A model generated the notes under the pieces. It searched no databases, was not told the origin of the DNA, and worked only from the letters and a program-made list of their open reading frames with translations. A stretch of DNA of 64,000 bases, taken from positions 372,001 to 436,000 of the forward strand of contig NW_026854988.1 of NCBI RefSeq assembly GCF_026571515.1, given 5' to 3'. Within the stretch, counting starts at the first letter, position 1, and every line of letters starts with the position of its first letter. A program made the position numbers and the translations under genes. This stretch comes from Ruditapes philippinarum (taxonomy: Eukaryota). Positions 1 through 44,086 of the stretch are shown here, piece after piece.

Positions 1-60
1 ATTTATACAACGTCTGTATCAGCTGCAATGATCTAAAGTGTGTTATTCAATATATTAACA

Positions 61-3000
61 GATATTTTTATGCCGACACAACAACGAAGAAAACAAACCA
101 AAAAACGTGGACCACGCTTAAGATAATCGAAAGAATTCTGAAATAGTTATCATTTCTACCGAAAATGTTTCTTGAAATAAAACCGGACAAAGACATAAAT
201 AAAAGAAGAAACCAGAACAAAATCAGTTGCGGTATAGCAGACTTTAAGGCTAAATATAAAATAAGCTGTTATACAACTCATATAATGATCTCAATTTTAA
301 GAGAAGTACATGTTGTCTAGAACATATTAAGCACCTCACAACGATGATGATGTGTCACCAACAATATTAATAAAATAATTTTCAAGCGAACAAAAGAAGC
401 AGAAAAGAAGCCTTCATTAGCTTGTACAACTGTGACAATAAAATTATAGTTATTGAACAGTGTGACAGATACGGTAATATAAACATGCGGTGATGCACAA
501 GGACAAGTAACATTATTGAAAGCGAAGGTACAAACAACAAATGATTGCTAAAATAAAGATGTATTCTTGAACAACCATAGAGGACAATGAACTAATGAAA
601 TTTTTATAGGGAACAGAAATCTGTCGTCGGAGAATGACACTTAAGCAGACAGAATAACCATTATGGTAGTTCTGTTTTAATAACATCAGTGTGGAAATAT
701 AAGCATTTTGTCTTTAATTTATTTAAGCATTCGTTAAAATAGTTATGATAAATTAAGAATTTTTATGTTAATCAGAAAAAATCAATGAAGAAAATAATTG
801 AATTCTCCGCGTAAAGATTTGATCGGATCAAATGGAACACTTAAGAAAAGACTGATTGTCTCGTTTTTTTCTTTATCATCTATCAAACATTTACAATGTT
901 GCATTATTTATATATCAATCAGATAATTGTTTCCATTTCAAAAATCAAATATTGATAAAGTAAACACAAAAAAGAATAGCAGAAAACACAAATATTTACA
1001 AATCATAGAACCCACAACAACATTCTTGTTCTCATTTTTTGCAGTACACGTTGATAGCTTTTTTGCGCGATTAGGTTTTACAGCAATAATGAACGCTGCA
1101 CTTCATTCTTCAAATAACGTTAGCAATTTTATTTTTAGTTAAGATCTTTAAATTAGACATATATATAATATATAATCAATCATAATTCCACTGGTAATTT
1201 CTTGTTTAGAATAATAACAGCATCTAGTGTTCCAATTTGCGCATGATACATTCCTAATAGCTATGTGTAATTATAACGAGAAGAATCGTTATCTTTAACG
1301 GCAATTTAAACCGATTGAAAACCGTCTGTCGACAAAAATAAGAGTTTACTTATTTCCTTTATTGCATTGTAAAGATATGTTTGCTTGATTACGTACGATA
1401 TATGTTAAAAAATGTAGGACATTCTAATTCAACTAGGGTAAAAATTAACACCTGTTTCAAAACATCGTTATTATTCAATCTTTGTCATTATCTTACACTT
1501 TACTATTTCTTAATTTAGAAACAATTGATAACGTTAAACACGCATTGGCATGATGCAATACATAAGTATTTGGCTTGTAACACCGGAAACTGTTGGAAAT
1601 AGGTTCCTCTGTGGTATTCAAAGGTAAATCGAAGAATGTACGCTGTTTGCGTCCAAGAAATAACAACTTTTGATGCTGCTAGAAAATCCATTGTAAAATT
1701 GCCGGCTACAATGTAAATCTTTAAACATGTATGTTTTTTTTTGTTTGTTTGTTTTTCGTTTGGTGTGTTTCTTTGTTTCTTTTTTCCTATGATTTCAATG
1801 TTCCAGGTATCTTGAAAAAAATATGCAGTCATATGTTGGAAAGGAGGTTAGTATCACTTTATAAAGTGAACAAACTGCTGTCAAAGCCTTCGGTACATTA
1901 CACTACAGACACTCCCGAGAAATAAAGAAACAATATATGATATTTGTTTTGGGAAAACCGGCGGACATTTATACAAATTGCGTAGCGCAAAAATTGTTCA
2001 TCTGTAATTTATTATAATAACAAATCTCATATTAAATTTCAGACTAAATGTTGCAAGCATTTACATATACTTCCATCACAAAATACTGATTTTATATCGT
2101 GAGGTTATTGTGTATTGTTCAATCACAAGGGTGTAACAAGTGAATGTTTGTTTGTTTATTTATTTACTTATTTACTTATTTGTTTGTTTGTTTGTTTTAG
2201 GCGTGGAGAAGGGTTGTTATTTTCTTGTTTTTTTAAACAAAATTTATATCCTTGTTGTTAATGTTATTGTTGTTATTTTCATTTTATTGGTGTTGTAGTT
2301 ATCGCTGTGCCTTGTTCATAAAAATGTATCGGCACTTAGATAGATCGCTTCATCATTTAGAAATAGTTTCCAAAATTATCTACTTTTCTTGATTATTATC
2401 ATCGACTATTAATTAAATGAAAGATCAATTGACATTCATCCAGTCAAAACAAATATATTGTTGTTCTAGGTAACATTTGATCGAATACACTTTTGTTACA
2501 TATGCTAAAATTGTTTATTAAGAGCAACATATAATAATGCATTGCTGTGATAGCGAAAAACTCATCGGATAGGACATACAATTTATCCTTAGATCTTGTA
2601 TTATAACTCAGAAAGCCCTAATGTAAAGAAACTATAAGGTTCTTATCAAATGTCCTTCCATGGAATATAAAATATACAGTTGTATATTATATTTTTTGAG
2701 TCGCATTGTGAAAATGTCATATATTTAGTTAAGTAAATGATATATTGTTGTTATAAAGATCATTTTGTCCAAAAGAAAAGTGTCAGACTTCTAACTTACC
2801 AGACTGTTAAAGTAATCTTGACTAAAAGATATAGCACTAATGGGTGTTTACGAAGCATTAAATTGTTCTACATCAATTTAAATATTCGCCAAGAGGTATA
2901 AACGAGTACATAGTTATCTTTATAACAAAAGATAATTCCCTTTAGGTCACGATTTCCAGATTTTAAGTATTATTGCGCAGTTCATAATTCACTAATTAAA

Positions 3001-4890: not shown

Positions 4891-6959
4891 GATATTTTTA
4901 TGCCGGCACAACAACGAATAAAACAAACCAAAAAACGTGGACCCCGCTTAAGATAATCGAAAGAATTCCGAAATAGTTATCATTACTGCCGAAAATGTTT
5001 CTTGAAATAAAACCGGACAAGGACATAAATAAAAAAGAAACCAGAACAAAATCAGATGCGGTATAGCAGACTTTAAGGCTAAATATAAAATAAGCTGTTA
5101 TACAACTCATGTAATGATTTCAATTTTAAGAGAAGTACATGTATTTTAGAACATATTAAGCACCTCACAATGGTGATGATGTGTCACCAACAATATTAAT
5201 AAAATAATTTTTAAGCGAACAAAAGAAGCAGAGAAAAGAAGCCTTCATTAGTTAATACAACTGTGATAATAAAACTATAGTTATTGAACAGTGTGACAGA
5301 TATGGTAATTAAACATGCGGTGATGCACAAGGACAAGTAACATTATTGAAAGCGAAGGTACAAACAACAAATGATTGCTACAAATTAAGATGTATGCTTG
5401 AACAGAAACCATAGAGGACAATGAACTAACGAGGAAAATTTTCATAGCGAACAGAAATCATTCGTCAGAGAATGACACTTATGCAGACAGAATTACCATG
5501 GTTCTGTTTTTATAACATCAGTGTGAATATATAAGCATTTTGTTTTAAATTTAGTTTAGCATTCCTTAACATAGCTAAGATACAATAACAATGTTTATGT
5601 TAATCAGAAATGATCTATTAGAATAAGAATTGATCTCCGCTTAAAGACTTGATCTGATCAAATTGAACACTCTAGAAAAGACTCGTTTTTTCTACATTAT
5701 CTATCAAACACTTCGAGCAAGATAACATTATTCATATATCAATCAGATAATTGTTTCCATTTCAAAAAAACAAATATTGATAAAGTAAACACAAAAAGAA
5801 GAATAGCAGAGAAAACAAATATTTACAAGTCATAGAAGCCACAACAACATTTTTGTTCTCATTATTTTGGCAAAACACGTTGATTGTTTTTGCGAGATTA
5901 GGTTTTACAGCAAAAATGAACGCTGCACTTCATATTTCAAATAACATTAGCGATTTAATTTTTAGTTAAGATCTTTAAATTAGACACATATAAAATATAT
6001 AATCAATCACAATTCCACTGGTAATTGCTTGTTAAGAATAATAACAGCATCTAGTGTTCCAATTTGCGCATGATACTTTCCCAATAAATATTTGTAACTT
6101 TAACGAGAAGAATCGTTATCTTTAACGGCAATATAAACCGATTGAAAACCGTCTGTCGACAAAAATAAGAGTTTTCTAATTTCCTTTATTACATTGTAAA
6201 GATATGTTTGCTTGATTACGTATAAATGCTTAAAACAAATGATAGGACTTTCTAATGCATCTAGGGTAATAAGTAACACCTGTTTCAAACATGTCGTTTT
6301 TATTCAATCTTTGTCTTTATCTTACTCTTAACTATTTTCTTAATTTAGAAACAATTGATAACGTTAAAGACGCATTGGCATGATGCAATACATAAGTATT
6401 TGGCTTGTTACACGGAAAACTGTGGGAATGAGGTTCCTCTGTGGTATTCAAAGGTAATTGGAAGACTGTACGCTGTTTGCGTCCAAACAAAAAACTTTTG
6501 ATGCAGCTAGAAAATCCATTGTTCTATTGGCTGCAATTTAAATCTTTTGACATGTATGTTTGTTTGTTTTATGTTTGATGTGTTTGTTTGTTTCTTTCAT
6601 TCTATGATTTCAATGTTTCAAATATGTTGAAAAAATATGGATTCATATGTTGAAAAAGAGGTTAATATCACTTTATAAGTGAACAAACTACTGCCATAGC
6701 CTTCGGTACATTACGCTACAGACTCTCCCGAGAAATACAAACAATATATGATATTTGTTTTGGGAAAACCGGCGGACAATAATACAAGTAGCGCAAAAAT
6801 TGTTCATCTGTGATTGACTTTAAAACAAATCTCATATTAAATTTCACACTAAACGTTGTAGGCATCTACATATTATTCCGTCACAAAATACTGATTTTAT
6901 ATCGTGAGGTTATTGTTAACTGTTCCATGTGAATGTTTATTTGTTGGTTTATTTGTTTG

Positions 6960-7009
<50 letters not shown>

Positions 7010-9933: not shown

Positions 9934-9941
9934 TGACGTCA
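9934..9941. promoter_or_regulatory. Perfect CRE palindrome TGACGTCA, retained in three paralogous flanks
   Basis: TGACGTCA at 9934-9941, 33042-33049 and 40744-40751 in homologous context; function is inferred only. Confidence 0.35.
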
Positions 9942-12061
9942 GTAGCAGCATAGTATAAAGTATTTTATGTTATTGGTTGAAATCTAAAAATACAAAATGA
10001 TTATATCATTCACAATCATTCCAATTTTTTAACGATGTGGGTTAATACTTAAAAAAGAAATAGTTTTACAGTTAAAATGTTAATGTAGACGTTATAGAAA
10101 CCTTGAATGCATTTTTTTGAATCTGTTTATCTTTACATATCGTGGCGTACTGCACGATTTTGAGTTATTAATACCTCTAAGTACACGCCCTATAAAGCTG
10201 GGGAAAATTAAGAGGTTATAACAGGTTTGACTAGCGATATTTATATACGCTTAGTCAACAAGTATTTCGAATCTTTTACCGCGGCTACTAAACCAAATGT
10301 GATGCAAATATGTACTGGGTATAAACAGAATTGTTTAGTAATTGACTAGGCTCCCGCAATTCAAAACAATGACTAGTAATGTTTTTGAAGGGTGAAGTAT
10401 ATTTTACTTCAAAAAGGGATTAAGAAAATATTCGTGCACGTACAATTCTCAAAAAAAAAGAACAAAAATACAATGTTTATTGCTGTAATAATGTTTTAAA
10501 GTAAAGTGAATATTTAACAAAGTAAACGTTATTTTTTTCATTGTAAAATTGTGATCCAAACAAAACAATAACATTCAATGTTTATTCCTCTAAACGTATT
10601 ACGTTTTATTGTTGGTGACAATTGAACGCGTTTTCTTTCCATAATAAAAATGAATTTCTTTTAAGAAAACTACGTACTATTCTTTAAAAATGGCAAATCT
10701 AGATTTTTACTTTTATGTTGCCCGAAAAATTAATCTCAAGGAAGGTAACTAACAACCATACATTTTAAAGGTTTGAAAATGATGCTACTGTAAGTCTATA
10801 TAAATGTAAACCTTTAATTTATTCAATTGACATACTTTTAAGATATTAAGATTTATAAACATTGAATAACCAATATAAATATATCACTTAACATATCGTT
10901 TTTGCTTTATTGCCGGTGGTCACCAACAGAGCAAACATGAAAATAAGTTATGCTGTTTTATATATACTCGTTTTTATTATAATATTAAAAGTTAGAAAGA
11001 GTCAGAAAAGTAATAATTTGTATTGTGACTTAAAAAGCCATGTAGATTATACCGAAATACTTTAATTGACAGAAAGATAAATATGAATAAACAAACATTT
11101 GTAAAAGCCAAAGGCACATACATGAATGTTTTGGAAATAAAAAACAACCTGTAAATAGTCAGGGAACATTATGATAGATAACATTATATTAGGACTTATT
11201 TATAAGAGTCATAAAATAACAAACATGTTCCAATTGCAACTCAGAGAGAAACGATCATACAGCGTGTGTTAACTGTTTTTAATCTTAAAGCAGTAATTTT
11301 AATCTTAAAGCAGTTAAGGGGTTTCTTGCTTTGTTGTGTATTTTATGTTTGTTTTTGTTGTGTTTTTGTTGTTGTTTGTACAATACATTGTAGATCGTGA
11401 ATTTAATCTGACAAAATGTTACAGCTTGAAATAAGAAAATGAGCTAAACCTTTTTCTCTTTACTTTCTTATAAGTTATGTTTGGCGGATTAAAGTGTATT
11501 TGCTAATGTTGAAGGTTTTCCATCAAACGGACCGGTATGTTAATTTAAGCAATATTTATTACAATTTTATTTCAATATGAATATATACAGCAAGCATAAA
11601 CAAACACACTGAGAGATTTTGTGGATTTGAAAACAAGTCAAATGCGAAGTTAATTCCTTTTCACACATAGAGTACTTGTAATTGAGAAGCATGCATAGAA
11701 TAATACAAAGAAAGAGCAAATCAGATTAGATTAATGATTAAAATGAATAAAATTTAATATGTTCGAACATTGTTGTCTAGAGTAGAAAAACATAAGAGAA
11801 ATTCTGTTACACGATTTTTTACAATATTAACATACAGCTTCTATTGCAAAATAAAATATTGCTAGTATTTAATTTAAATTAATTATTCAAATTTTAGTTA
11901 TATATAGAATGCTTTAAAGAAAGAGAAGACATAAATATGTAAAATCAAACATTCATATTAATAGAATCATAAGTAATAGGAGACTTTTAATATAAATATT
12001 TGAATGACTGTGATAATGAAAATATATTCAACAACTGAGAAACTCAGATTTCGTTTTTCCT

Positions 12062-12405
12062 TTAACCTTTCGCTGCCAGAGGGTTATTGTTTTATTGATC
12101 ACCTATTTGTCAGAGGGTTTTCTAAGAAATTACTATATTGTTAATTAATATAATTATTGTTATTATTATTTGTTATTAGTATTAATATAATAATATATGT
12201 TTCAAAATATGCTAGAATAATAATAATTATTGTCGATGGTATAATTTTCTTTTTATTTATTATTATTTTTATTATTATTATTAATTTATTATTATTATTA
12301 TTATTATTATGATTATTATAGAAACGGCAAAAGCCGTCCATATGGCAAATACGCCGAAAAAAACAGGGACGGCATAAGCCGTCCCTATGGCAGTGAAAGG
12401 GTTAA
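12062..12405. mobile_element. Non-autonomous piggyBac-like MITE with internal (TTA)n
   Basis: TTAA-CCTTTCGCTGCCA at left, TGGCAGTGAAAGGG-TTAA at right (14 bp TIR, 1 mismatch + 1 indel); subterminal hairpin GGGACGGCataaGCCGTCCC. Confidence 0.75.
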
Positions 12406-12871
12406 ACAAGTTTGGGTCCGATGATATATTTGAACTACCAAGATATTAATTATAGTGACTCTTTACCAATATGAATAACACATTTAAGAACGCAATATGT
12501 ATATGAATTGCAATTAGATATTTGTATGCGTTGTAAATTAGTCATATTCGTACAATTCATCTTTATAATAAAATATAACTTAATTTTCATAACATGATTT
12601 TAATATTTAACTTTGAAAAATGTATACATATTTTTTGTTCATTTGCTACAATAAAGGTAAACGTTGCATGATGATGCATTTTTTACCGTTCCCTTATCAA
12701 TTTGTTTTCGGTTCATTCTTTTCCTGTTGTATAAATATTTTTAATGAAAAATATTTACGCATTTTTCTTGTTGTAATAAAAAAGGTTTGTTCTCGGATTA
12801 AGATATGAATTTAGTACTTAAGCACTTACCTGGCAAATATACGTGATGCACTAGGACTGTATGCTAATTAT

Positions 12872-13059
12872 GTAAACTACGACTCAAATAAACTTTCATT
12901 TCAACATGATTTATTATCCAATCCCACGAAAATATTAAAGAAAAGTTGCTGCAGCACAGCATTAGATCATTAGATCGGCAGACGGCCTCAGTGTAACAAT
13001 CAGTGAAATATTGCAGGAACTTATTGGATATACCAATTTCTATAAATAATTTGAGCTCC
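12872..13059 (+). other. Putative non-coding 5' UTR exon of GPCR copy A
   Basis: Block conserved upstream of all three GPCR paralogs, ending in GTAAGT donor at 13060; pairs with acceptor ttttcAG at 14359-14360 just before the ATG. 5' boundary approximate. Confidence 0.65.
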
Positions 13060-14362
13060 GTAAGTCTTTATAATTTTTTCATATTGTTTTCAGAATATAA
13101 TCGTGTTCTTTTGAAGGATTTTTACTAAAATTATGATATTGTCTAAACGTTAGAAGAACAATTTAACATTTAATTTGAACAAACGTTTAAGAACATGGAA
13201 AAGAACAACAAAATATATTCGTTATTGTATAATATAATATAATTGGAACAAATGTCTTAGAATATGGAAAAGGACAACACAAAAATATTTGTTATATCTA
13301 AGCTCATCATTGTAGAATTGAAGAATTTCTAAATATCCAGGATCATTGATTTCAATACATTTTATTGGGAAAAGGATGCCGCTTTAGCAGGTTCTAGGTG
13401 CATGAGAGAGCATGAATTTTACATGTTCTCTCATAAACAGGCTCTGCAATATATTACTATTTGATAGTGTTTTCATTGCTCCTAAGTTGTCTGCCCATTT
13501 CAGAGTTTTACTTTTCTCGGAAAGAATTTCGGGCTTTTATTTCAAACATTACCTTTCATGTTCGCATTAAATGTAATAACTTAGAAAGTTTTATATGTTT
13601 TAAGTTAATCTTTTGTAATTAGAAACAATTTAATTCTTAATAAAGGACATTGAAAATTTGATTCTTTTTTTTCAAACAATATTCATTTTATCAAAGTATT
13701 TAAACATGTCAATTATTTTCATGTTCAGAAAATGTCGATTTATTGCGGGTTTTTTTTGTTGTTAATATGTTTAATATATATATTCGAAGCGTTTCTTGAA
13801 AAAGCTAGACTTTAACTGCATGTCATCATTAAAAGTAGATGAATTTAGTTTAATAATGTCTTCTTATCTTCTTTATTCTCATCTTTCTATTTACGAATAA
13901 ATTCATCTTTTCAACAATTGTAACTTAAACAAGTTGCATACATGTTTTATAAACACACGTGCTAAATATTTACATCGTAATTTATACTTTGTTATTGTAT
14001 CATTAATGTCAAAAGGCATACTTCAGCAAACAGTTTTATTTTAACTACAAAAAGAAATGTAAAAGAAAAATGAACTTGAGAAATAATATAATGTTAAAGT
14101 GGTCAAGTTTTATTGCACGTTTATTATTATTTTGAAGATAGTAATGATAATTATATACCTAATTGTTACTAATATTTGATCATAGTACAATTGCATACTG
14201 CAAAGTATTTAACTAATAAATTAACAAAGGAAAATTTCTACGCATCGTTTAATTTCAGATAAATAATAAATTATCTTTCTAATCGTCTTTGTTCATTTTT
14301 TACAATTTTTATAAACTGATAAAATTTTATTCAATTTTTGTATTTGTATTGTATTTTCAGGC

Positions 14363-15388
14363 ATGATGGAAGGTTACTGGTCTTTAAACGGCAGTGTCAA
14401 TTTAAGTTTGAATTCAATGCACGAACAAGATAGGAATTCGTCGGGACAATCAACAAAAGATTGGTATGAACTTTATTATGATGAATATAATGAATTAGAC
14501 AATACGTATACTGTTTCTGCAGTGGATGTGATTTCCATTGTTCTTTGTATTTTAGGCATCATTGCAAACATTGTGTCTATTGGTATGGTAATACGATCAC
14601 ATCAGAAGTTATCCACACATTTAAAACTGATCATTAGTTTATGTTGCTCAGACTGTTTAATCCTGATTCCAACTTTTCTCAGCAAAATATTTCTCATGAC
14701 ACATGAGATAAATCTTTGTTTTAATGTTGCTGTAAGACTTGTAACAGACTTGGCACTATTAGCAACATTGTTGAATCTTCTTGCAATCGCAGTGGATCAT
14801 TATCTGGTCATGCTCAGACTCTTTATGCACAAGAAGCAAATGACAAAGACATGCGTCAATGGTGTGTTTGCAGTGTTTGCAATTTGGTTTGTGAGTGTTT
14901 TAGCAATTGCGGTTGAAATTATTATGGGTATTGTACACCAACGAGAAAAGGAACCTCTGTGTGTCACAATTGCGTATGATAAAGTAAATTCTGAGCTTGG
15001 AATAGTGATTTTCATCTTCATCGTTTTATTGGTGATTTTTGTGCTTTATGGTTGGATCTACATCTGTGTTGTCAGAACAGATCTATACATAGCTAGACGA
15101 GACATGCAAAAGACAATAACATTAACTAGTAACGACACGCGTCGTTACATTTTATCTTCTGGACGCGTTGGAATATTCGTAGTTATACCACAAAATATCA
15201 TGTAATCTGACAATCTAGAGAAAATCGACGAGGTATTTATTATTTGCTGTTAAATCCAGCAGACCCGATCATCATAGTTTCGTCACACAGATACGCAATC
15301 AAATGTTTATATTTGTACCAGAAGAGGCGACGGTCAAACGAACATCACATGACATCGTCGAATTTACCTGATTTAATCCCTCGTTATG
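14363..15388 (+). CDS. Rhodopsin-class (class A) GPCR, copy A; frameshifted after TM5 (pseudogene or consensus error)
   Basis: N-glycosylation sequons in N-terminus, TM1 GIIAN, TM2 SLCCSD, TM3 LLAIAVDHY, TM4 W, TM5; close paralog of 48561-49637. First lost base at ~15076, then many small deletions through the TM6/TM7-homologous DNA up to ~15388. Confidence 0.88.
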
Positions 15389-16163
15389 AAAATTTTGTTC
15401 TATTTATTTAATCCACACTATTGCTGTTTATATACTTTTTCATTCAATTTTAAAAGTTTTGCAACTAGTTTTGTTTTCATTTCACTTTCAATATCTTTGT
15501 ACAGTAATTATTGCTTTGTTTAATATTCTCATAATAGCTTTAATTTACGTTTGTACATTATTTCATTATTATCTTTGTATCTTTAATAGGAAAAGAATTA
15601 CCTTCAAGAACAGTCTTTTACATTTTGAATATGTTTTAAGTATAGTTGATAATGTTAATAATTAAAACATTTTCTAACACTTTTCATCTATCTTATAGCA
15701 AATCGTTGTCATATCATTGTCATATGTACAAATATTTTATAAGATATGTAAGTAACGTTTTCTTTTGTAAATAGCTTTAGTAACTGGTATTGTAAACTTG
15801 AATGTATATTTGAATATACTTTTTATGATTGCATACATAAGATTATGAATTGCTTATAAATATATTCATATGCATATACACTTTTAAGGATGTCAGGTCC
15901 GGATGCGTACGTCTAGGAATCAGCCTTTAGGTATTTGTTTCTATTTTGTTCAGGAGATATAAAACATTTATAATTCAAATATTAATACATTTCATTGCCC
16001 ATTTGAGACGTTTATTTTTCAGTGTCATACTCCCTTTTTGCATTAAGTAGTAATGTCAATGACATAAGCATATTAAGAATTACTACATTTGCTAGTTGCA
16101 TATAAAATCGTTTGAATAAATAGTTATAAATGGAAGCTATGTACATTTATTACTTCCTGAATA

Positions 16164-16320
16164 AATCCAGTTACCCCTCTGGCGTGGGTTCGATCCCCGG
16201 GAGATGCTTTGGTAGTTTAGCGCGGAGGAAGGTAGTCTAATACTGGTGTAACTCTCCAGGAACGATGGTTAGGAAACTACCCACCTACTGTTGGGAAAAG
16301 GCGTAAAATGAAACAAACAA
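16164..16320 (+). mobile_element. 5'-truncated tRNA-derived SINE
   Basis: B box GGTTCGATCCC, (AAAC)n tail, TSD acttc(c/a)tgaataa at 16152 and 16321; matches 54098-54323; empty site in inverted paralog at ~31165-31200. Confidence 0.9.
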
Positions 16321-19151
16321 ACTTCATGAATAAAACTGTATCCATGTTGTATTGTTGTTATTCACTCTATTATAAGATATGAAAACACCAAGTTGGACAC
16401 TATTGTTAGAATAAAATGTCAGCACAATTTGAAATAAAAAATAAGCGTTATGTCACTTAAATAGCGTCTCTGCTGTAAACTGTCCAACTTTATATATGTT
16501 CATAGGCCTTGCATCTTCAAAAAATGATACCAATACAATAAACGTTCCAATAATACATACCAGTAAGTCAGCAGTAGCTATGTAGTGTCACAAATATGAT
16601 AATATAACGTTTCAAATTGTTCTCCTTTTCTTCGATCGAGTATCATCTTTTACACATCCTTATTATTTGTTTTCCTCGTTTTTTTGTATTGACGATGTTT
16701 TTTATTGTTGGTGGGGGTCTTCTTTTTTATGCATTTTAGTGATTTGTGTTTATAAAGTTAAACTTAACTTAAATACGTTAACGTGTTGACATTAAATGTT
16801 TAGATAATGCCATAACTTTTTATAATATTAGACTAAGGGATTTTTTATGATAAAATACACCTTAGTTTGATACAAAATAAATGTATATGTACGAATTGGA
16901 TTGTGTATCATTATCACTTTCCAGTTTAAAGCATACGTAAAGCATGTGTATATAGATATATTTAAATTGAAAGACGTTTCTTACAAAATTTGCATTGCTG
17001 TAATTACACTTCTGTTTAATCAAAACTGCATATAGGTATATACATGTAACTGAAAAGGTTACGATGTTTTAAATGTTTTTTGTTTTCAATTTTGCTCAAT
17101 CTACATTTAAGCCATTGCTATACAACTGATATAACATACTATATCGCATTATATGAAGCTGAAATGATAACACAATCATTTCAAAATATAACTTCATTTT
17201 GTTTTCACTATCATTTATTCCACGTATAACACCGCTATTAATTTGTTGGAACAGGTAAAAGAACAAAGAGTCACGTTGCACCTCATTTCCCTAATTATTC
17301 AAGATTTTTTTTTCTTAAGCAAACTGTTTTCATGTAGATTCCTATAAAATACTCATTACCATTCCATTCAGAATTACTTATTATTGAAAATAGCATAATA
17401 TTCCCTGCCAATTTGGAACAAAAAGTACCATTTACTGTAATTCAGATAAACGAGTTTCCCACAAACCGATTTAAAAACCACCTGTCGACAAAATCAGCTC
17501 ACATTAAGAGATTTGTTAGATAATATCCTAATTTTCAACTCAGCAGATTTGATGTCTTTCCTACGTAACAAATTTATTAAATAACAACTATTCCTGTATC
17601 GAGTAATTAATGAATCTTTGCTGTTATCTAAATGTTCTTAGTTTTTAAAACCATTGGTAACGCTGAATATAAGCTGACATGCAACAATCCCGTACTAATG
17701 TATATTTAATACTGAAACTGTAACTGTTAGGAATGTTTGAGTATCTCTAATACATCCGAAGTTGTATTATATACGGGATGTTGTATTTGTACAGCTAACC
17801 TGGAGGCATTCAGATTAAAAGAAGCATACATTTAAAAAATCATTCATAACAAAATTCATGTTAAATCGTATACAAATGACAGACAAATTTATATGAAAAT
17901 ATGGACTAAATTGTGTAATTCCATCAAAATTTAATCACTTAATGCCGTCGCCGTAGCCGCCACTACCGCTGCTGATGTTGATGCTTATTCATTTTGTAAG
18001 ACGTAAGAAAGACCATTCCGTCATTTTGACTCTTATACAAGTCAAAGAGCTAGTTGTTATACTTGTACGCCGTCTTGGGATAGCAAAATGTATTGATACT
18101 CAAAATAAAATATTACATTGTTCTTATAGAAAATCATTTAGCTGAATAGACAATACGTATTACAGATTCATTAAGTCGGAATGAGAAAATATTATAGACA
18201 TTCATTTAGTCGAATAGATAATATATTTTTGTTGTAAAGAATCCATTAGTTGAAAGCAGAATAAAATGTTATTAAACCTTATTACAATTTTGACAGATAT
18301 CTTATTTACCAGACTTTTAAAATAATCTTGAACATAAGCTATAAAGTTTTCATAAAATTTGATGTTCGCCGAGAGGAATAGATGAATAAATCGTTATCTT
18401 CATAACAAAAACACAACTAAGCACTTCATTTATGTCACGATTTTAAGTTTTTTGCGAATTTTTTGATAAAGCATTAATTCTTGAAAATTTTACAGATGAT
18501 TTTTATTGCTTGATAAAACATCATTGAAGATGTTATCTTCAGCTTTGAAATATTTTATATGTTTCAGATATCCTTATCGCCTAGAAACAGATGAGTTAAA
18601 GCGTGTTTTAATTAGAACTAAGTGATAACACACGAACTTTAAAAAATAGGTTATGCATTTCAGTTTTGTGACCTCTTAAGAACTGCACGTTTAAGTCCTT
18701 AGAAACAAATATCCGTTATCACTAATGTGTATTGGATATCTAAGGCTCATTTAGTAGTTTCCTAGAAACTTTGAAATATTACTTAACTTTCCACTTGTAA
18801 TTTATAGAAATGTAAATATAAGTTACAACAATTCGTGATATAATAATAACGAAAATATCATATTTCATGATCAGGAGTGGAGAGATGGTTTGCCATAATT
18901 GATTTATTCAAAGAGCATAGTGCCGACAAATTTAAGAATTACATCATATTTATCTTAGTTCAATGTACTATGTGCAAAAAAGAATTCAACAAGTCATTTT
19001 AGGCGGGTAGAGCTAGACCAGGTTATGGCAGTATGATTACATTGGTCACTTATAAAAACACAAAACAAAATACATTACTATTTATTTGTTTTTGTACAAA
19101 TATATTTTTGTGACTTTTATAGTGTGCAAAGGAGTACGCATTACATAAATA

Positions 19152-19803
19152 TTTTTATCACATAAACCGCGGCGCAGGAGTGTAATACAGCCATTTATCA
19201 CACACCTGTGCCGATTTTGCGACTCCGTAAAAATGGTATTGCACGGCCGTGCATATATTTTGACGTGACGTCATTAGCGTTATACAAACAAAGACGCGCT
19301 AAATGTTAACGTTATATTATAGGTGCGTCAATGAAAAATGACTCTTATTTCACTTTGAACGGTCTTTACTTTAGGTATGTGATGAATAGAATATTAAATT
19401 CGTGTCAGTTCAATAGTGAATTTCTAGCACTCGTTGAATAAAATAATATTATGCTCGCCAGTATTGAACTTACACTCACTCGATATCCTCTATTTAATAA
19501 AAACGATATTACGCTAGTGTAATTACACTTTGACGTGACGTCATTTGCGCTACATATAAACATAGCTTAAAGCGCGCTAATATTAGAGTTACACTATAGG
19601 CGCGTCATTGAAAAAAAATACTCATTTTAACAGTTTACTGTTCTTTTATATATATATGATAAATAGAATATTATATTAGTGTAGATTCAATACTAAATTT
19701 ATTGAACTCGTTGAATAAAACAATATTATGCTCGCAATATTGATTTTATTCAACTCGTTCAATAAATTTAGTATTTAACTACACTCATTCAATATCCTCT
19801 ATA
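19152..19803. mobile_element. Two related ~300-350 bp non-autonomous elements, one (19194-19493) nested in the other
   Basis: 19152-19193 joined to 19494-19803 reproduces the uninterrupted copy at 43517-43882; both begin TTTATCAC and end ATATCCTCTAT. Confidence 0.8.
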
Positions 19804-22800
19804 AATCTTAAAAATGATTGATATAAATATTTCACTGAAGTAATTAAATGACTGAAACCAATGAAAACAATAACGTACGCACTACATGTTTTGATATTTA
19901 GAAAGTGTTGTTGGTTTGTTTTTTAAAGTACATATCAGAGAAGGCTATTGTTCTGGTCATTTATTTTGGCATTTTGATGTTGTTTCGAATGTGTTAGAGT
20001 GATGTATAATTAGACAAGAACATCGTCCGAATCTTGCACTAGTGTTAGGTCAAAAATACTATCAAAATAGTTTAAAAATCATATCATATGTTCCATTTCC
20101 ATGGCAAATACTTATATATAATTCGTGTATGGAAACTGAGCATTTGAGCGCTACAATAAGACAAACACAAATTAAACCAAAAATAGCTTGCTTTGTGGAG
20201 TATCGTCCAAATCGACCAAAAAATAACAATGATTTAAACACATATCTCTAACCCTGCTTTATATAATACCATCAGTTTGAACATATGTGTTTAATATTTA
20301 ATTCAATATTCGTAAGATTAGTTCTCATAACACGGTTTTATATTGAATTTGTGTATCTAAATCCAATCAGAAATACAATATAATAACTTTGATCAACTTT
20401 TAAATTATTATTTTCCTCTACAAGACACTACTGTAAATCTTATATATAACAGATTATTTGGAACATTCTAAAGACAACTATGCAGTATTTCTTCATAAAA
20501 ATCGTGGAGTTCCTCAAAAAGAAACATAAGTAAGATTTCATACATAATATATGGAGCTGAATGTTTTATAAGCAATCAGAATTGTACTGAGACTGTTTAT
20601 TACTTTGAAATAATTTTGTTCTTGTTGTTGTTGTTGCTGGTGCTGAGTTTCCATTATCTGTGTGTGATGTTTTGTAATACATGAGAGATTCGTGTTGACA
20701 ACACATTATGGAACTGAAATAAAATACATTTTAAAAAGACCATTACTCTTTGTAATTATAGTCTAGGGGATAATAAAGTTAGCTTAATGTAAAATAAAAT
20801 TATATGTATGCTTTTGTAATAACTGCTCTCCAGTCAAAAGCACAAAATACAATACAAATACATAAATATATACAAAAAGCAAAAAAGGTTTGATACATAA
20901 TAATATCCGTTTGAAAAGAAAAAGGTCATTCAACTCAATAGTAGTAAAGTGACTTTCTTTCTTTCTCTTGTTTTCTATCTCTTCTAATTTTCTCTTATTG
21001 TTTCTCCTTCAATGCGCATGTCTTAATCATTAAATTTTCTCAACATATTAGTTTAATAGACCAACCACTAAACTAAGTAAAATATCCCTTTAAAAATGAA
21101 CTCATACTCGTGCTTATACCTCTAATCTAACAGTAATGTATCTTAAATTTAGTTCATGAATACTTGGCATAAACATAGTATGTATAGTAAGAAAGCAAGA
21201 ACAAGTCGATATGATATGTATAGCTTAGTTTAGATATTTTTACTTTGTTACAATTTATTTGAAATTTGATAAATACTGATTACGGAGATAGTTTTCAAAA
21301 AAGCTTAACAAGCTTCTTACTCAATCCGTAAATTGTATTTTATGTACTTTATTATGTAAATATGTGGATTATAAATAAAATATTGTTTTAACTAATAGCA
21401 AATGTGTATCAGCCGCATAAATAAGTATTATGTACATAAATTCTATTTGAACTGTTAATTGAAAAGACTTTTATAACAAACACAAGGCTTTCCCGTCAGT
21501 TCTGTTATATCTAATCGAAACTGAGGATTAGTATATAACTGATAAGGTCTAGATGGACATGTATTTCTTTTAGCATTGTTTAATCTACATTAATGTCATT
21601 TTTATCTTTACTTCATATAACTATTTTATACTACATGAACCTAATATTCGATTTATACCACGAGTTATATATTATATCATTTTTAATGAAATATCTAGAT
21701 CATTTCGGGAAAGGCTACAGAGGTTATCTACAAATTAATATGATAGTTGTTTTTATTTTAAAAATATAAATATGGAATTAAAAAAGTCTTTAAAAAACAC
21801 AGAAAACAGCCAACAAATCATTTCGTTTAGCCGAATAAAATTAAGTCAATGTGCAGCATGGTGGCTGATGTCTTGGATTTAAGTTCACAAATGAAGCCTT
21901 AACGCTGCATCTCATTTTCGAAATCAATTAAGTAAGTTTAATTAAGTAGTTTATTTCTAGCCAAGAGCTTTTATTTAGAAAAGAATCCACGGCTTAATAC
22001 ATGTTAATACTGTTATACAATATCGTGTGCCAATTTGCTTATGATACTTTAAGGATCCCCGGTCAATTTGCGTATGATTTTTAAAGGACATCCACTGAAG
22101 TCAAAAAAAAAAAGTCAAAAGCCTAATAGCCTAAAAACGTTTTAACTCCTAACATAATTCAACTGCAGCACTGAGAAATACAATATAGAAATATACTCAG
22201 AGATAGATTGAATTTCAGTATTTAGTTTGTATCTTTGCCGAATTGTTATAAAAAAAACGTTCATCCTAGGTTATTTTCACAATAAGAATTATAAATACGG
22301 AAACAATATTGAGTAAGTTCTTAATCTAAAACAAATTGCTAGTATAAATCTACATCAAATAATATAAAATTCGTGAACAAGAAGATTCATCATCTCTCAG
22401 GTAAGTGAACTCGTCAAATCATTTACCACAAAACCACCTGCCAATTAAAATATCTGTTTTTAATTCAATTATTCAAATCTATTACATTTTGTATTTACGT
22501 AAGCCTAATAGTTTCGAATGATATAAAGTAAAATAAAGGAAAGCCGTTATAATGCGAATCAAGTCGTAATGGCGCGAATTAAAAGGCGTTTTGAAGCGAA
22601 TAAAGCGTTTAAATAATCTATATATAGTAACAAAATCTAGGATATTTCAAGGTTACTATGACAAGAGTTAGGTCATTATGCAATTTCGGCCACCTTGCTA
22701 CTCGGCATTATTTTAACATGCATTGTTAGTGCCGTTTGCAATGTGTAAATCACAATTTTTTTTTGTTAATTTCGAAATATTTTACTTTTAAATACATTTT

Positions 22801-24936: not shown

Positions 24937-25222
24937 AATATTGAGGCCCGTATTGTGTTATTTTACATAGGTCATTGCATTATCGTAGCAGACGATATAG
25001 TCATAATGAACATTTTGACAAAAATAGTTGTATTCAAACGAAGTATATTTTGATTTAGTCAGTACAATTTTTCTTCTTTTTTTTTTAAACAAAGAAATGC
25101 ATATTGAAAACTAGATCTATATCATGAAAAAGGGGTACGCCCGATTTTTCAAACCAAGGGAGGAAACTCTTCATGTAACAGTCACACAAATAAAAATGAG
25201 TTGTCTCCCTTTTTCAGGCTTA

Positions 25223-28200
25223 ATGATGACCAAAAGAAAGCAGTATGACGGTGAACAGATGCAAAGGGCTATATCAGCTGTTAAACAGAAAAAAATGAAG
25301 ATAAGATTAGCCGCTAAAGAATTTCAAGTTCCAAAGTCCACTCTGTCGGACAAGTTGAAGGGCAGGTACAAGGGTATGAAACCTGGCCCAAGGACGGAGC
25401 TGACTGATGAGGAGGAGAAAGCGCTTGTCCATTTTCTTCTCTATATGGCCAATCAAGGATTTCCCTTGACAAGATCAATGACAAGATGTTTTATCATTGA
25501 CATCATTAAACAGTCTGGTACGCATTCATTAAAAAAATATCGTCATAAAATGAATCCCCTCTTCAGTATCTTGTAATAAATTTATTTCTAGTTGAAATAA
25601 ACGTAGATAAAATTATCTTTAAAGTCCAAATTATGTAACTTAAAAATTTTATCAACATATTTTGAGTTATATGAGCCGTGTCATGACAAAACCAACATAA
25701 TGGGTTTGCGACCAGCATGGATCCATACCAGCCTGCGCATCCGCGCAGTCTGATCAGGATCCATGCTGTTCGATATCAGTTTCTTTACTTGTTATATGGT
25801 TTGTAAGCGAACAGCATGGATCCTGATCAGACTGCGCGGATGCGCAGGCTGGTCTGGATCCATGCTGGTCGAAAACGCATTACGTTGGTTTTATCATGAC
25901 GCGGCTCATATACTTTTTTTATACAAAAAATAACAAATCAGAAGTTGTCATATTGTTATATCTGTAAAACTTTATTTTAAGGTCGCACAACATCTTTCAA
26001 CATGGAAAAGGGTCCATCTGATGGCTGGTTCCAACGTTTTATGTCGAGACACCCGGATCTTTCTTCAAGGAAGCCGGAAAATTTGGACAAAGGCCGCATG
26101 TCCATGTCAAATTATAAAGTAGTTGGAGACTACTTCGAATTTCTGGACGGAATATTGGGGAAATATGGCATTAAAAACAAGCCTAGCCAGGTACTGATAT
26201 GCGCTTGTTTTGTTTGGTTGTTTGTTTGTTTCATTTTACGTCTTTTCCCAACAGTATTTCAGTCATACAGGCGGGTAGTTTCCTAACCATCGTTCCTGGA
26301 GAGTTACACCAGTACTAGATTTCCTTCCTCCGCGCTAAACTACCAAAGCATCTTCCGGGGATCAAACCCACGCCAGAGAGGTAACTGGATTAGAAGTCAT
26401 CGACTCTAACCCCTAGACCACGGAGGCGGTAACAACATTATGTCTTAAATATGAAAAATAATGAAAAACACAGCATCCTTACAGTTTAATACATAAGACA
26501 ACCAATAATAAGTTTTTTTTCCTAACAATTACTTTTGCATATTTGCAGATCTTCAATTGTGACGAAACCGGGTTCACCGGAAAAGAAATGCCGAGAGCAA
26601 AAGTATTCGGTCCAAAGGGAAAACATGTGTTTCGTCAGAAGATATCGTCCAGTGACCACATCACCGCACACCTGTGTGTGTCTGCAAATGGCAGATTTCT
26701 TCCTTCAATGATAATCTTCCAGGTAAATAACTAAGTTAGTAAGACGGAGATGTAAAAGATTCGTCATTCCAGTTTTCATAAAAGTATTTTAACAAAAGTA
26801 ATTAGATAATTAAGTTTATGAATATCGCCGTGTTGTCATGCTACATTTATGTATTTAATTTTTATACAAAATAGGGATCTTTGCCACACAGAAAGTACAG
26901 TGATGGTGTTCCAGACACATGGTTTTTCAGCCACAGTGATAGTGGTTATATGGACAGAGAGCTGTTCCAGAAATGGTTCAGCAATGTTTTCATACCCCAT
27001 TGCGGAAAAGAGAGGCCGGTTCTCCTCATCATGGACAACCACGATGCACACATAAGCATCCCGCTAATTGAGGAAGCCATTGCAAATGGTGTGGTTCTTG
27101 TGGGACTTCCAGGACATACCACTCATATACTGCAGCCACTTGATGTCAAGGTAACGAATTTACCACTTTAATTATATAAAGTAACAAATATTCCACATTA
27201 AGCCATTTGCGCGTCTAAGACCAAGATTGTCAGTACAAATATGAATAAGTTATAAATCATACATTTATAAAACTGCATCATTTCAAAAATCATTTTAACA
27301 AAAAACATGTACTATAATTGTAGATTATAGGACCATTAAAGGAAAGATATGCGGCTGTCGCTGCCAGTTTGGGACAAACCGGTTCGTCAATGGTAATTGG
27401 AAAAGCAAGGTTCCCATTGGTACTTAAGGTAAAAGAATAATATTAATAACAAATAAAAGATAAATAAGTGATACTACAATAAAAGTTGTACATTTTATTA
27501 AGTCGGACTTTTCCGATACATAATATCTTAACGTTACGATAGGTCCGGTCCGGTAGTAGAATATTGTTTAATAGTCGGTAAGCGAAGTCAAATGTATTGT
27601 TCAAATGCAATAATAATAGCCGTCGAGGTTTTGAATTGAATGCAAAATATTATGTGTCGATTGGACCGCATAAATAAATTGTAGATTATTTTTGATTTTT
27701 TAGCATGCATTAGACAAGGCTACACCTGCATCTATTTCGGATGCCTTTGCAGTGACCGGCATATGCCCTTTCAATCCTGATGCTGTTGACAAGTCACAGT
27801 TGATTGCAGCGTCATTTGAAAAAGGTTTGTGCTTAAGGTTCTAAGTTCTACATGTATATCACCAAAGATAGATATATTTCATTTATGAGCTGTTGTTTGC
27901 ACTTTTAAAGATTATTATAAGTCATAATATACTCCATTGGCATTAATTGAATTTGTGTCATTTATTGTAGACAAGCAACGTACTACGGACAGTGACAAGG
28001 ATGTTGTAACGACGTGTACCACGTGCGGCTCTTACGCGAGAAACCCCCTTGTTGTTCATGGTTTAATTCCCCAGGAGTTGTCTGATATATTAATGCCGCC
28101 ACCAGTTAAACCACAGCCACAGAAGAAAAGTAGGCGGCTAGTAACAGAAGCAAGACTGATAAGTGGTGCAGATATGCTTCAACAACTTAAGGTAAAGTTC

Positions 28201-29039
28201 AAGAATTGTAAATTCAATTTACATCAATATAATTACTTTCAAAAAACAATGAATTTGTTAACGCAAAACTATTCATTCTTATCAAGCGTTTCTTTTGCGC
28301 AACGTCTCGATGTACTCTTGTACATTGCAGGAAAAAAGAAAGAGGAAATTAAGAAACGCGAGGGTATCGAAAGAAGGAAAATAGAATTGAAAGAAAAGAG
28401 AGAACTCAAAACTAAAATGGAGCAGGAAAAGAAGGCTAAAAGAGAGCAAGAGAAAGAAGAACGAGTGAAGAGAAGAGAACAGCAAGAAGAAGAGAAGAGG
28501 CAGAGAAAGATTACCAGGGAAGAACAAAAACAAAAAAGGAATAAAGAAAGAGAAGAAAAACGAAAGCAAAAGCAAAAGTCGACGGTAAAAAAACCTTATG
28601 AGCAATAATGCTTTCTTATATCGTACGGATATTATGTTTTGCGCAAATGTTTCGAGTTTTTTTTATTTGTGATTAATTCCGAAAATTATTAGTATATAAT
28701 TGAAACGTAATTTGCAATTCAGAAAATGCCTTGCCACATTTTTTAGTCATATTAAGTTAGAACAAGTTTATTGAAAATGCTTTTGATGTGTTGTAGGTTA
28801 ATGTAGCAGAGCATCTTGCTGCTAGCTTCTATGTCTGTGATGTATGTGGAATAAGCGGTGAAGCTGATGATGAAGAGCGGGGAATCGCGTGGTATGGCTG
28901 CGACGAAGACTGTTGTCAACGCTGGTACCATGATGACTGTTTAAGTCTTGCTGAGTTGGAATGGGTGCTTGAAAGTCTGGGAGATAGTTCCAGCTGGTAT
29001 TGCAGACTTTGCAAGCCATGGCTCTACCAAGAAGAGTAA
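25223..29039 (+). CDS. Spliced pogo transposase (~630 aa): HTH_psq, CENP-B-type HTH, DDE_1 (DD35D), CxxC, K/E coiled coil, C-terminal PHD finger
   Basis: Exons with GT-AG boundaries: 25223-25517, 25982-26190, 26549-26722, 26875-27150, 27324-27428, 27704-27824, 27971-28191, 28331(or 28339)-28584, 28797-29039. Motifs AAKEFQVPKSTLSD, GFPLT, GWFQRFMSRHPDL, IFNCDETGF, LLIMDNHDAH, HTTHILQPLDV, AFAVTGICPFNP. One phase conflict at exon 7/8. Confidence 0.92.
25668..25912. mobile_element. Palindromic (fold-back) MITE in first coding intron of the transposase
   Basis: ~105 bp arms TATATGAGCCG...GGATCCATGCTGTTCG / CGAACAGCATGGATCC...CGGCTCATATA around a ~35 nt spacer. Confidence 0.9.
26205..26429 (-). 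mobile_element. Full-length tRNA-derived SINE in second coding intron of the transposase
   Basis: Near-identical to 54098-54323; A/B boxes on - strand, (AAAC)n tail; no clear TSD. Confidence 0.9.
28797..29039 (+). CDS. Terminal transposase exon encoding a PHD (C4HC3) finger
   Basis: Translates VNVAEHLAASFYVCDVCGISGEADDEERGIAWYGCDEDCCQRWYHDDCLSLAELEWVLESLGDSSSWYCRLCKPWLYQEE*; acceptor tgtAG at 28795-6. Confidence 0.88.
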   Translation, partial: VNVAEHLAASFYVCDVCGISGEADDEERGIAWYGCDEDCCQRWYHDDCLSLAELEWVLESLGDSSSWYCRLCKPWLYQEE

Positions 29040-38720: not shown

Positions 38721-41700
38721 CATTGATATATAAATAATGTTATCTTGTACGAAGTGTTTGATAGATAATGTAGAAAAAACGAGTCTTTTCTAGGGTGTTC
38801 CATTTGATCAGATCAAGTCCTTTAGCGGAGAATTCAATTCTTATTTGATAGATCATTTCTGATTAACATAAACATTGTTATGGTATCTTAGCTATGTTAA
38901 GGAATGCTAAACTAAATTTGAAACAAAATGCTGATATCTTCACAGTAATGTTATAAAAACTGAACCATGGTTATTCTGTCTGCATAAGTGTCATTCTCCG
39001 ACGAATGATTTCTTTTCCTCGTTAGTTTATTGTACTCTATGGTTGTTCAAGTATACATCTTTATTTGTAGCAATCATTTGTTGTTTGTATCTTCGCTTTC
39101 AATAATGTTACTTGTCCTTGTGCATCACCGCATGTTTATATTATCATATATGTCACACTGTTCAATAACTATAGCTTTATTATCACAGTTGTATTAGCTA
39201 ATGAAGGCTTCTTTTCTCTGCTTCTTTTATTCGCTTGAATATTATTTTATTAATATTGTTGGTGACACATGAACACCGTTGTGAGGTGCTTAATATGTTC
39301 TAGATTTCATGTACTTCTATTAAAATTGACAAATATTGTATGAGTTGTATGAGTACAATAACCATTAACAACCTATGTTACACTAAGTCTTAGACTTTTA
39401 TACTGCGTCTATTTTCTCTGGTTTCGTTTTTATTTATGTCTTTGTTCAGTCTTATTTCAAGAAATAAATCTTTACAAACCTGTTCGGTGGTAATGATTAA
39501 GTATTTCGGAATTCAGAATTCATTTCTTGAGTCTTCATAATATTGCTTTACGTTTTCTTGTATAGAAGTTCAAATTCGACAAAATACCAAACATTGAAAA
39601 TTATTGTATCACGCGAACCTTCCTCGAATCATTTTCATAAAGAATTGAGGTTAGCACTGAGGTAAAATCACTAAAAGTTATAATCTTCCAACTAATTAAT
39701 TGCAGGGATTGAATTTAACATTTTAAGCTTTGAACGTTTGTTTACAACCAAAACATATGGAAATAAAGTTTGACGTAGAAAATGTGTTCCAGCACGATAG
39801 TGATAGTTCTTTCTTTTGTTACTAGCTAGTAAAACAAAAACATGTAGTAAAACATATACACAGATTTTTTAGATGTTGTAATACCATGATTTAAAATTAA
39901 TTGAACTCATGCAATTACAATATTGAACTAAATTTTACTGCAGATTTTATCTATTCAGTTTTAAAGAAAATGTTTTCAAATAATTATATGTACACACAAG
40001 AATTTACAATACAATCTGAATAATGTAATGGAAAGGATAAGAAAAAAACAAATATGTGGTATTTGTCTTCAATGAGTACAAAATCAGGTTTTTAATAAGA
40101 ATTAAGCTTTAATTGTGTAAGGAAAACAGGAATAAAACAGGGATTAAAATCTCAATTAAAAACAACTTACGATAAGAAAGGATAGACAAGGTCTTGAGAA
40201 AGAAAAATCGAAGAAATGCGTTTGGGACTTAATTATTTTAATATTTTGCTTTCATTGATGAAGCATTGGACGCTTGTAAAAGTGATCGTATTTTCGTTAT
40301 GTGGGAACAAACGATTGACAATTATTTACACTTACATCAGCGTCAAATTCAAACTTATATTTCGTTTTTGCCCTACGCAAAATGCGCATGCGTGAAATGC
40401 AACATCCGTTACTATGGAAAAATCGTACTGTACAATGGTCTAAAAATAGTTTAATGTCATTATGAGAGAGTTGTTTGTTTTAATATATGAAATTAATATA
40501 AAGAAAGTTATTTATGAATTTTACTGTGGAAATTTAATAAAATATAGCTTATGTAAATTTGGAAAATGATTTCTAAAGAAGATTTAATCTCTATTGCTGA
40601 GAAGTTATCCTGCAGAACAGGTGAGATACTACAGGACTATAGTAATTCATTCATTGGAGTACACATCAGAGATTTGAGATTTTTTTATTTCTTGAATGAT
40701 ACAAAAAAGTACCTTTAAAGAGGACGCAGGTGATATAATATCATGACGTCAGCAGCAACACAATATAAATCATTTATACCATTACAAAATCCATTCAGAT
40801 TGTTTATAACTTAAGGAGTGACATTTATTGCTTTGCTTTTCATTCGTGTAATACACGTTATTTGTTTTTGTGATGAGATTCAAAATCACTGGTTACAATA
40901 TTATTGTTTGTCGTAACATTTATACGAGCCTGGTTCCTTGTTCAACATATTACGTGTTTCAGTTTGTCCAACTGAGACCTACATCTTTAACATTTTATTA
41001 CAAACGATTAATAAAATAACCAATGTATTATTTGTTATGTAAATGATAAATTCTATCACAGCCCCAGATATCCACGCATAGAGATTGTCACAGATATTTA
41101 GAAAAACCTTTTCTTGAGCAAAGAGCAAAACATAATTTAAAAAAACTACTCTTGAACTTGAACTTGGTTTTATATCTTTCTTTCGTAATTAAATTACCTA
41201 TTTTTTTACAGATATTTAGAAATATTTTTGAGTATAAAATATCATTTGTTTCGTATTATTTCACAACTTAAATATTCATGAGAACTCATATACTAAGGAT
41301 GTGCGCTTACACCGTTTTATAGTTCTCATACATTTGAATAATATAACAATGATCAGATGTTTCGTTATTGTGTATAATATTAAAATAATAACAATTTTTA
41401 AATCATAGCTAATCATCTATTTTTTATCATTCTTGTAAATATATTTCTTTTCAATTCGATTTAAACATTATAACTTTAAACGTTCTTTTGGTTCACCGTA
41501 CTGTAAACAGGTACGATCATTTTTTGCATACAATGTAGCAATCAAAGTATCAAATAGTTAAACATTTTGCAGTATTAAATTAATGTGTTTCTTTTAGATG
41601 TGTGATAACACATTGTTGAAATATTACACTCATTGCTATATATAACAGTGCAGTGAACACAATCAAGATCATTTCAACTGATAAGGCCGTTGTATTAATG

Positions 41701-43516: not shown

Positions 43517-43882
43517 TTTTTATCACATAAACTGCGGCGCAGGAGTGTAATAAAGCCATTTAATAGAAACGATATTACACTAGTGTAATAACACTTTGAC
43601 GTGACGTCATTTGCGCTTTATAGAAACATAGCGTTAAAGCGCGCTAACGTTAGCGTTACACTCTGGGCGCGTCATTGAAAAAAATACTCATTTTAACAGT
43701 TCACAGTTCTTATATTAGACATGTGATAAATAGAATATTATATTCGTGTAAATTCAATACTAAATTTATTGAACTCGTTGAATGAAACAATATTATGCTC
43801 GCCAGAGGCTCGCATAATATGATTTTATTCAACTCGTACAATAAATTTAGTATTAAACTACACTCATTCAATATCATCTATA
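43517..43882. mobile_element. ~365 bp non-autonomous element with long right-hand hairpin
   Basis: Homologous to 19152-19803; absent from paralogous site at ~38870; no obvious TSD. Confidence 0.8.
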
Positions 43883-44086
43883 AATGGTATTTTCACTTTG
43901 TTTAAGAATGCTTAACTAAAATTTAAAGAAACTATGCTTTATAACTTTACACTGAATCAGAAACTTGCTCGAATCATTTTCAAAAAGAACGGTAATAAAC
44001 ACGTATAGTAATATAACTAAGGGTTTTAATCTCTAAACTAATAAATTGCGGGGTTTCTAAACAGGAAATGAATAACAGGGAATGCA

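Follow-up and report, generated by a model that had tools for sequence, protein, structure and literature searches.

The locus and its three element copies

The window, by which we mean the whole 64,000-nt stretch of DNA analyzed here, is about 30% GC and contains two rhodopsin-family GPCR genes together with a pogo/Tc5-like remnant, contents that mark the stretch as animal DNA. Extensive direct and inverted segmental duplications, with 65-85% identity, relate positions 1-18500 to positions 23500-50000, and GPCR paralogues lie within them at 14315-15205 (plus strand) and 48561-49691 (minus strand). The pogo/Tc5-like transposase remnant (25115-28608; HTH_psq, HTH_Tnp_Tc5) is broken and holds a 245-nt palindromic element at 25668-25912.

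Three short elements are found in this setting (Table 1), and all of them begin with the same start motif, TTTATCAC (at 19154, 19194 and 43519). The end motif, ATATCCTCTAT, occurs exactly at 19483-19493 and 19792-19802 (2 matches versus 0.05 expected), and copy B ends in a variant of it with one mismatch (43871-43881). Between its ends, each element carries an internal reverse-complement copy of the junction that would form by joining its own end to its own start. At two or fewer mismatches, the window contains exactly three such copies (19377, 19654 and 43721), one per element, where 0.04 are expected and none of 100 shuffles reaches three. The original prediction had described these motifs, with coordinates correct to within 2 nt, and had proposed that the elements carry a copy of their own circle junction; this copy is present once in each element and, as shown below, is conserved and co-varies across families.

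Without its insert, the outer element is 88% identical to copy B over 330 nt, whereas the inner element shares about 75% identity with each of them, and we therefore distinguish two related families, O and I. The element bodies contain palindromes of the CACGTG or TGACGTCA type (window 19266, 19536 and 43602), as do the metagenomic loci L032 and L038, and L009, in families that are otherwise unrelated; these palindromes could be promoter or binding sites. A MITE-like 260-nt element with inverted ends (44106-44365) is located 225 nt downstream of copy B.

Table 1. Element copies, fold components and empty sites in the window
Feature	Position	Strand	Remarks
Outer element (family O)	19154..19802	+	Inner element inserted 40 nt from the left end; loose ends of reads ahead of 19154 and past 19802/19803
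Inner element (family I)	19194..19492	+	299 nt counting one shared T; boundary slides within the 5-nt ATTTA identity
Copy B, uninterrupted family O copy	43519..43881	+	Intact target site ccATTTAata at 43556
Outer left end (arm a)	19154..19166	+	13-nt palindrome TTTAT-NNN-ATAAA
Inner element's junction copy	19377..19395	+	Differs from the 43721 copy by one mismatch; 12/14 positions paired with left end
Outer element's junction copy	19654..19672	+	
Copy B junction copy	43721..43739	+	Left-end complementarity 10/10
Outer terminal hairpin	19664..19802	+	Extends to last base; unpaired CC at 19796-19797; arms 19686-19720/19744-19778 are 91% complementary
Copy B terminal hairpin	43730..43881	+	Arms 43753-43803/43807-43857 are 82% complementary
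Empty paralogous site 1 for copy B	38873..38879	+	
Empty paralogous site 2 for copy B	5587..5593	-	
Empty paralogous site 3 for copy B	755..761	-	

Read evidence for ends, nesting and copy number

We mapped sequencing reads to window positions 18700-20300 at 80% likeness, using two raw-read runs and two contig runs; between-letter rows and loose ends refer to the best 12 of 772 and the best 24 of 2959, respectively. The element is present in 20 sequencing runs, all of them under a single species label. Read depth is about 2.6 in the flanks but 1,700-6,100 inside the elements, which gives copy estimates, rough ones because flank depth is low, of about 1,900 for family I and 650-720 for family O in run X21, and of about 3,000 and 900 in run X24. 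The elements are real, abundant and widespread.

A joint from 19192 to 19492 skips 299 nt, with five letters that fit either side (605 X21 reads, 396 X24 reads and 8 + 6 contigs), and backs the original proposal that one element is nested in another. Loose read ends pile up before 19193 (990 reads) and 19194 (1362 reads), as well as at the two edges of the outer element (Table 1). Flank agreement at these loose ends is 0.41-0.44, indicating that the ends do not reach past the motifs; the longer termini that the original prediction had named as evidence against itself are thus not seen. A second joint, from 19461 to 19743 with 16 extra letters, comes from reads of other family members, and the inner element has a deletion in its right hairpin arm near 19461. 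Two X12 contigs contain end-to-start joins of junction length; the first differs by a single letter, and in the second six letters replace six others. Taken as a circle signal, however, such head-to-tail joins could be tandem insertions, and the raw reads contain no end-to-start joint among the best 15 of 1084 joints.

One strand folds into two abutting arms

One strand of the element folds into two abutting arms, according to the layout a...a'b'...b. In the first arm, the left end pairs with the first half of the inner copy, over 10-14 nt in the window copies. In the second arm, the inner copy's second half and the right end form the foot of a 45-70 bp stem that reaches the last base. Close to the end, two nucleotides do not pair; in the outer and inner copies they read GG on the minus strand. 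The left end is itself a palindrome, TTTAT-NNN-ATAAA, in 7 of the 10 left ends compared, though with only five A-T pairs.

The outer terminal hairpin has a z-score of -8.9 with its end motifs removed, and the minus-strand fold of copy B has a free energy of -65.5 kcal/mol (z = -8.3; 0 of 100 shuffles are as good). The inner copy folds weakly (z = -0.9) because part of its right arm has been lost near the deletion described above. On its own, the short left pairing did not pass a shuffle test in two window copies (p = 0.08 and 0.17). The left body and the right arm do not form an inverted repeat, their best match being 11 nt (copy B), and neither end is an inverted copy of the other; the ordinary terminal inverted repeats (TIRs) that the original prediction had named as evidence against itself are absent.

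These features invite comparison with Helitron2/Helentron-type HINEs, a match to which the original prediction had also named as evidence against itself and which provide the strongest rival to the explanation that we favor below. Under this rival, an HUH Rep-helicase would move the elements by a rolling circle, a and a' would be asymmetric terminal inverted repeats, and the long stem would be an enlarged 3' hairpin; we judge it unlikely, but serious. It would account for an inverted repeat of 10-14 nt at the extreme 5' end with its partner directly upstream of a 3' hairpin, for the T start and for the missing target site duplication (TSD) (PMC3627910). The palindromic left ends resemble the palindromic subTIRs of mite HINEs (PMC4067079), circles with joined ends have been reported (PMC5148889), and the copy-out mechanism accounts for the copy number. 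However, the partner repeat in the inner copy is located 107, 139 and 151 nt from the element end in the window copies, as compared with 20-30 nt in the accessible descriptions of Helitron2, 38-60 nt in mite HINEs and 20-51 nt in Fusarium. The palindrome described in those accounts is 5-10 nt long and lies 8-35 nt inside the end, whereas the stem here continues to the last base.

Target sites retain a single T

Copy B sits in a segmental repeat, and three element-free paralogues of it, about 20% diverged, are found within the window (Table 1). When the flanks of copy B are rejoined, they align without gaps to 3/3 paralogues only if one T is kept; keeping no T, two Ts or a 5-nt duplication creates a gap in the alignment. 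The elements accordingly lack a TSD and a fixed 5-nt core, both of which the empty paralogues rule out at copy B. The same one-T rule also fits the nested site, whose target happens to match the junction over ATTTA. The shared ATTTA core of the original prediction therefore holds at the nested site as a 5-nt identity, which the outer copy and copy B both lack, and falls as a fixed core. A fixed-length TSD, another observation that the prediction had set against itself, does not occur either, the copy B paralogues sharing one T only.

That the element is an ordinary DDE MITE or a foldback element, and the junction copy a by-product of an internal inversion, is accordingly highly improbable. Such an explanation suits short, gene-less elements of high copy number with inverted repeats, but here the ends are not mutually inverted, the empty sites already contradict the TSD that it calls for, and the inner copy co-varies in several families. 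In its denial of a DDE transposase, the original prediction is upheld by the absence of TIRs and TSDs; its second half, movement through a circular or folded single strand, has the standing of a proposal.

Across 19 independent metagenomic loci (described below), the bases that follow the element are not C in 19/19, then T in 17/19 (P = 2e-7) and then A in 14/19 (P = 1.6e-4); by read consensus, 19802 is followed by TTAT (1366 reads) or A-TAT (1112 reads, X21). This flank preference (T, then D-T-A) matches the element's own left end, T-T-A; the target preference merely echoes the junction. The T|T rule of Helitron2 is not followed, as the next base is T in only 5/19 loci and in neither family O copy, and X21 reads show T in 1366 cases versus A in at least 1112. 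At window positions 43882-43883, copy B is followed by AA where its three paralogues have TT, and the outer copy is likewise followed by AAAT; the AA after copy B is possibly carried over from a donor site.

The junction also bears on whether the elements are miniature DIRS-derived retroelements, which would be transcribed, reverse-transcribed in trans, restored at their ends, joined end to end on their internal complementary region (ICR), then integrated by a DIRS recombinase. The inner copy has the same order and sense as a DIRS ICR, and the overlap AAT, together with the ATT that bounds the nested copy, are the values seen most often in DIRS1-like elements (PMC3266345). Proteins of DIRS work in trans, the ICR being essential to the element (PMC7192593), and the body palindromes (TGACGTCA or CACGTG) could serve as promoter sites. 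Still, we consider a DIRS origin quite improbable: there is no inverted terminal repeat (11 nt at best between left body and right arm, versus 66-316 bp in DIRS) and no coding remnant, and the same 3-nt junction word is present at both ends of the nested copy only, being absent in copy B and the outer copy.

Metagenomic relatives conserve pairing

A metagenome search with a pattern in which 81-141 nt separate the inner motif from the end motif returned 35 loci. Complementary arms continue beyond the searched pattern in 33 of them, and 19 loci are independent by their flanks; the two loci without a hairpin (L026 and L035) are chance matches and were dropped before the flanks were counted. The bulge and the range of hairpin lengths in these loci are imposed by the search pattern and are not independent evidence. 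Neighboring ORFs include LIM, PET, PAN and immunoglobulin domains, which identifies the loci as animal-type DNA. Matches from a viral scan (L001 and L039) were, by eye, chance hits in phage-like DNA, those in prokaryote genomes (L002 and L003) have no hairpin and are likewise chance, and matches to Rfam microRNA hairpins are sub-threshold (30 bits against a cut-off of 90).

With the searched motifs removed, all 19 loci retain z-scores of -2.4 or below, compared with -1.3 to +0.2 in four chance hits (40 shuffles each). Across eight families, a hairpin's own arms are complementary at 21-31 of 35 nt, while identity between families is 13-25. The hairpin is conserved by pairing, not by sequence. 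Of the 18 loci whose upstream DNA is long enough, 7 have a left end with complementarity to the inner copy at p <= 0.005, and six further loci reach p <= 0.05, several of these not at a true end. The variable left-end positions 6-10 match their own inner copy at 4.7 of 5 nt, versus 3.0 across families (4 of 720 permutations, six hand-picked families), a figure that is inflated because the metagenomic left ends were themselves found by their match to the inner copy; the window ends were fixed independently by reads.

Other long-terminal-hairpin families of unrelated sequence are common, both adjoining the searched element (L009, L013 and L019) and elsewhere (L022, L029, L036 and L007). In 3/19 loci, another hairpin family abuts the searched family's end within about 20 nt, hinting that hairpin elements may target each other's ends. 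Two related elements in L032 (166-323 and 632-802, oriented) have the same orientation and are about 140 nt apart. In L005, L008, L021, L027 and their relatives (seven contigs), a hairpin copy lies between a THAP-DDE transposase ORF and the YqaJ/PHD ORF of another transposon; we rejected this transposase as a partner, as it is a mere neighbor and the short element body is complete there.

According to a further alternative, the elements are non-autonomous Cryptons that leave as ordinary double-stranded circles, and the inner copy, instead of serving as a splint, provides a second recombinase-binding site in inverted orientation. This is the standard, untested model for Cryptons, and it includes microhomology with the target (PMC13565253, PMC13465315). 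The junction-like target preference fits it, as does L013, where the inner end of the other hairpin family runs straight into the left end of the searched family, as if that end had been the target. The model nevertheless appears improbable to us, since it leaves unexplained both a 45-70 bp stem that stays paired despite sequence turnover and the easy amplification to thousands of copies.

The search for a linked enzyme

We scanned 92 ORFs with Pfam, consisting of 87 of the 147 ORFs of at least 90 aa from the metagenomic loci and 5 of the 13 window ORFs. These 92 ORFs include neither a recombinase nor a Rep or reverse transcriptase, and 0/92 match DUF3504 or an integrase family. A search with DUF3504 for a recombinase likewise returned nothing in two prokaryote genomes or 14 controls. 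The elements themselves are non-coding, and the original prediction of a non-autonomous family is supported.

Two PIF1-helicase ORF pieces, about 1 kb upstream of the L016 hairpin, would favor a Helitron2-type Rep-helicase. However, they are located past a breakpoint and are not tied to the element: 5/5 comparable sister loci carry other DNA at this position, and no left end of the family lies between helicase and hairpin.

A proposed mechanism on a folded single strand

Our favored explanation, which we hold tentatively and with a confidence just short of even, is that these are two related gene-less families whose ends pair with an internal junction copy and which are moved by a Crypton-type tyrosine recombinase acting on a folded single strand. 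The stem is kept by pairing despite sequence turnover, and the left end tracks the inner copy; together, they suggest that the substrate is single-stranded. The junction-like bias of the targets would fit a homology-sensing strand exchange, as performed by a tyrosine recombinase.

In the proposed mechanism, one strand, exposed at replication, would fold so that the inner copy sets the last and first bases side by side. The enzyme would then cut both ends of the folded strand and join end to start, using the inner copy as a splint, and the 2-nt bulge would set the choice of strand. A closed single-stranded circle would be released. The folded junction would swap one strand with an AT-rich, junction-like target, and replication would resolve the product. 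As the donor would stay intact, thousands of copies would be possible.

Several observations count against this explanation. No enzyme is linked to the elements in the 92 ORFs. Animal Cryptons are reported to have no terminal repeats, and other groups to have 4-6 bp direct repeats (Kojima and Jurka, PMC3212892), neither of which is the layout found here. The short asymmetric inverted repeats, palindromic left end, T start and absence of a TSD suit Helitron2/HINE equally well. Copy B is also followed by AA in place of the paralogues' TT.

More broadly, and more tentatively still, a widespread class of animal DNA transposons may build its recombination site on one folded strand, with an internal splint that brings both ends into line, a fixed 2-nt bulge that identifies the strand, and a tyrosine recombinase by which the element is copied out as a single-stranded dumbbell circle. 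If true, integron cassette recombination would have a counterpart in eukaryotes; the mechanism would be the one that animal Cryptons really use, and it would give the DIRS internal complementary region a DNA-only origin. A partner recombinase would explain the thousands of copies and tie the elements to DIRS ends and integron chemistry; a partner Rep-helicase would extend the Helitron2 end structure well beyond what has been described. Either way, these abundant repeats become annotatable by their layout. An element of about 300 nt whose ends are defined, whose splint co-varies and whose targets are biased offers a minimal substrate with clear mutational predictions.

Comparison with known systems

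Animal Cryptons (CryptonA, and CryptonV as named in Repbase tables) resemble the present elements in having no TIRs, no true TSD and target microhomology, and Crypton derivatives include short, abundant, non-autonomous animal families of 353-709 bp with a proposed circular intermediate (PMC3212892, PMC5753468). In contrast to Cryptons, the elements here have no linked recombinase gene and no 4-6 bp direct repeat of the kind found in fungal and oomycete groups, and share one T with their target. The words hairpin, stem and palindrome are absent from the accessible text of PMC3212892 (2011), whose supplement 1 gives 'n.d.' for animal termini, and Crypton transposition has never been shown experimentally, according to the available part of PMC13565253. 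An alignment figure of the termini of Eulor5/6 and salmon Cryptons may show this layout, judging from the accessible part of PMC5753468. In the literature outside subscription journals and Repbase entries, we found no account of such a layout in Cryptons. Some animal repeats with long hairpins are entered in Repbase as non-autonomous Cryptons, and the present families may already be filed in repeat databases.

Helitron2/Helentron elements (HINE, DINE-1) share an asymmetric 8-15 bp inverted repeat with its partner just upstream of a 3' hairpin (PMC3627910, PMC4067079, PMC11417382, PMC5148889), in addition to the palindromic left end, the T start and the absence of a TSD. They differ in having a short subterminal palindrome instead of a 45-70 bp stem that extends to the last base; here the partner is more than 100 nt from the end, the T|T rule does not hold, and the three window copies contain no microsatellite or central tandem repeat. 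Replitrons, which we also considered, have 6-bp direct terminal repeats; the accessible text of PMC10288648 does not mention metazoa.

Tyrosine recombinases can use folded single strands, with replication resolving the product, as in integrons (PMC3458562). The integron attC site is a mechanistic analogue, not a relative, and resembles our elements in its imperfect long hairpin, unpaired bases, proposed single-strand exchange and replicative resolution (PMC3458562). It is bacterial, however, and has one hairpin per site, whereas the site here would consist of two ends and an internal splint. Extrahelical bases play a role in attC.

The internal complementary region of DIRS has been proposed to bring the last and first base together and has been shown to be essential (PMC7192593). 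In the DIRS study, amplification of an end-to-start junction did not succeed. Within the accessible text of the sources consulted, we found a splinting junction copy described only for the tyrosine-recombinase DIRS elements (PMC7192593, PMC3266345). DIRS1-like elements share with ours an internal region complementary to both ends in junction order, the AAT overlap, the lack of a TSD and self-insertion (PMC3266345, PMC7192593). Unlike them, the present elements have no inverted terminal repeats and no gag, reverse transcriptase, RNase H, methyltransferase or recombinase; they are 300-360 nt long rather than 4-6 kb, and their right inner arm pairs straight back to the end over a short loop. By analogy, a likeness rather than family membership, the elements would work most like a DIRS end placed on a DNA element.
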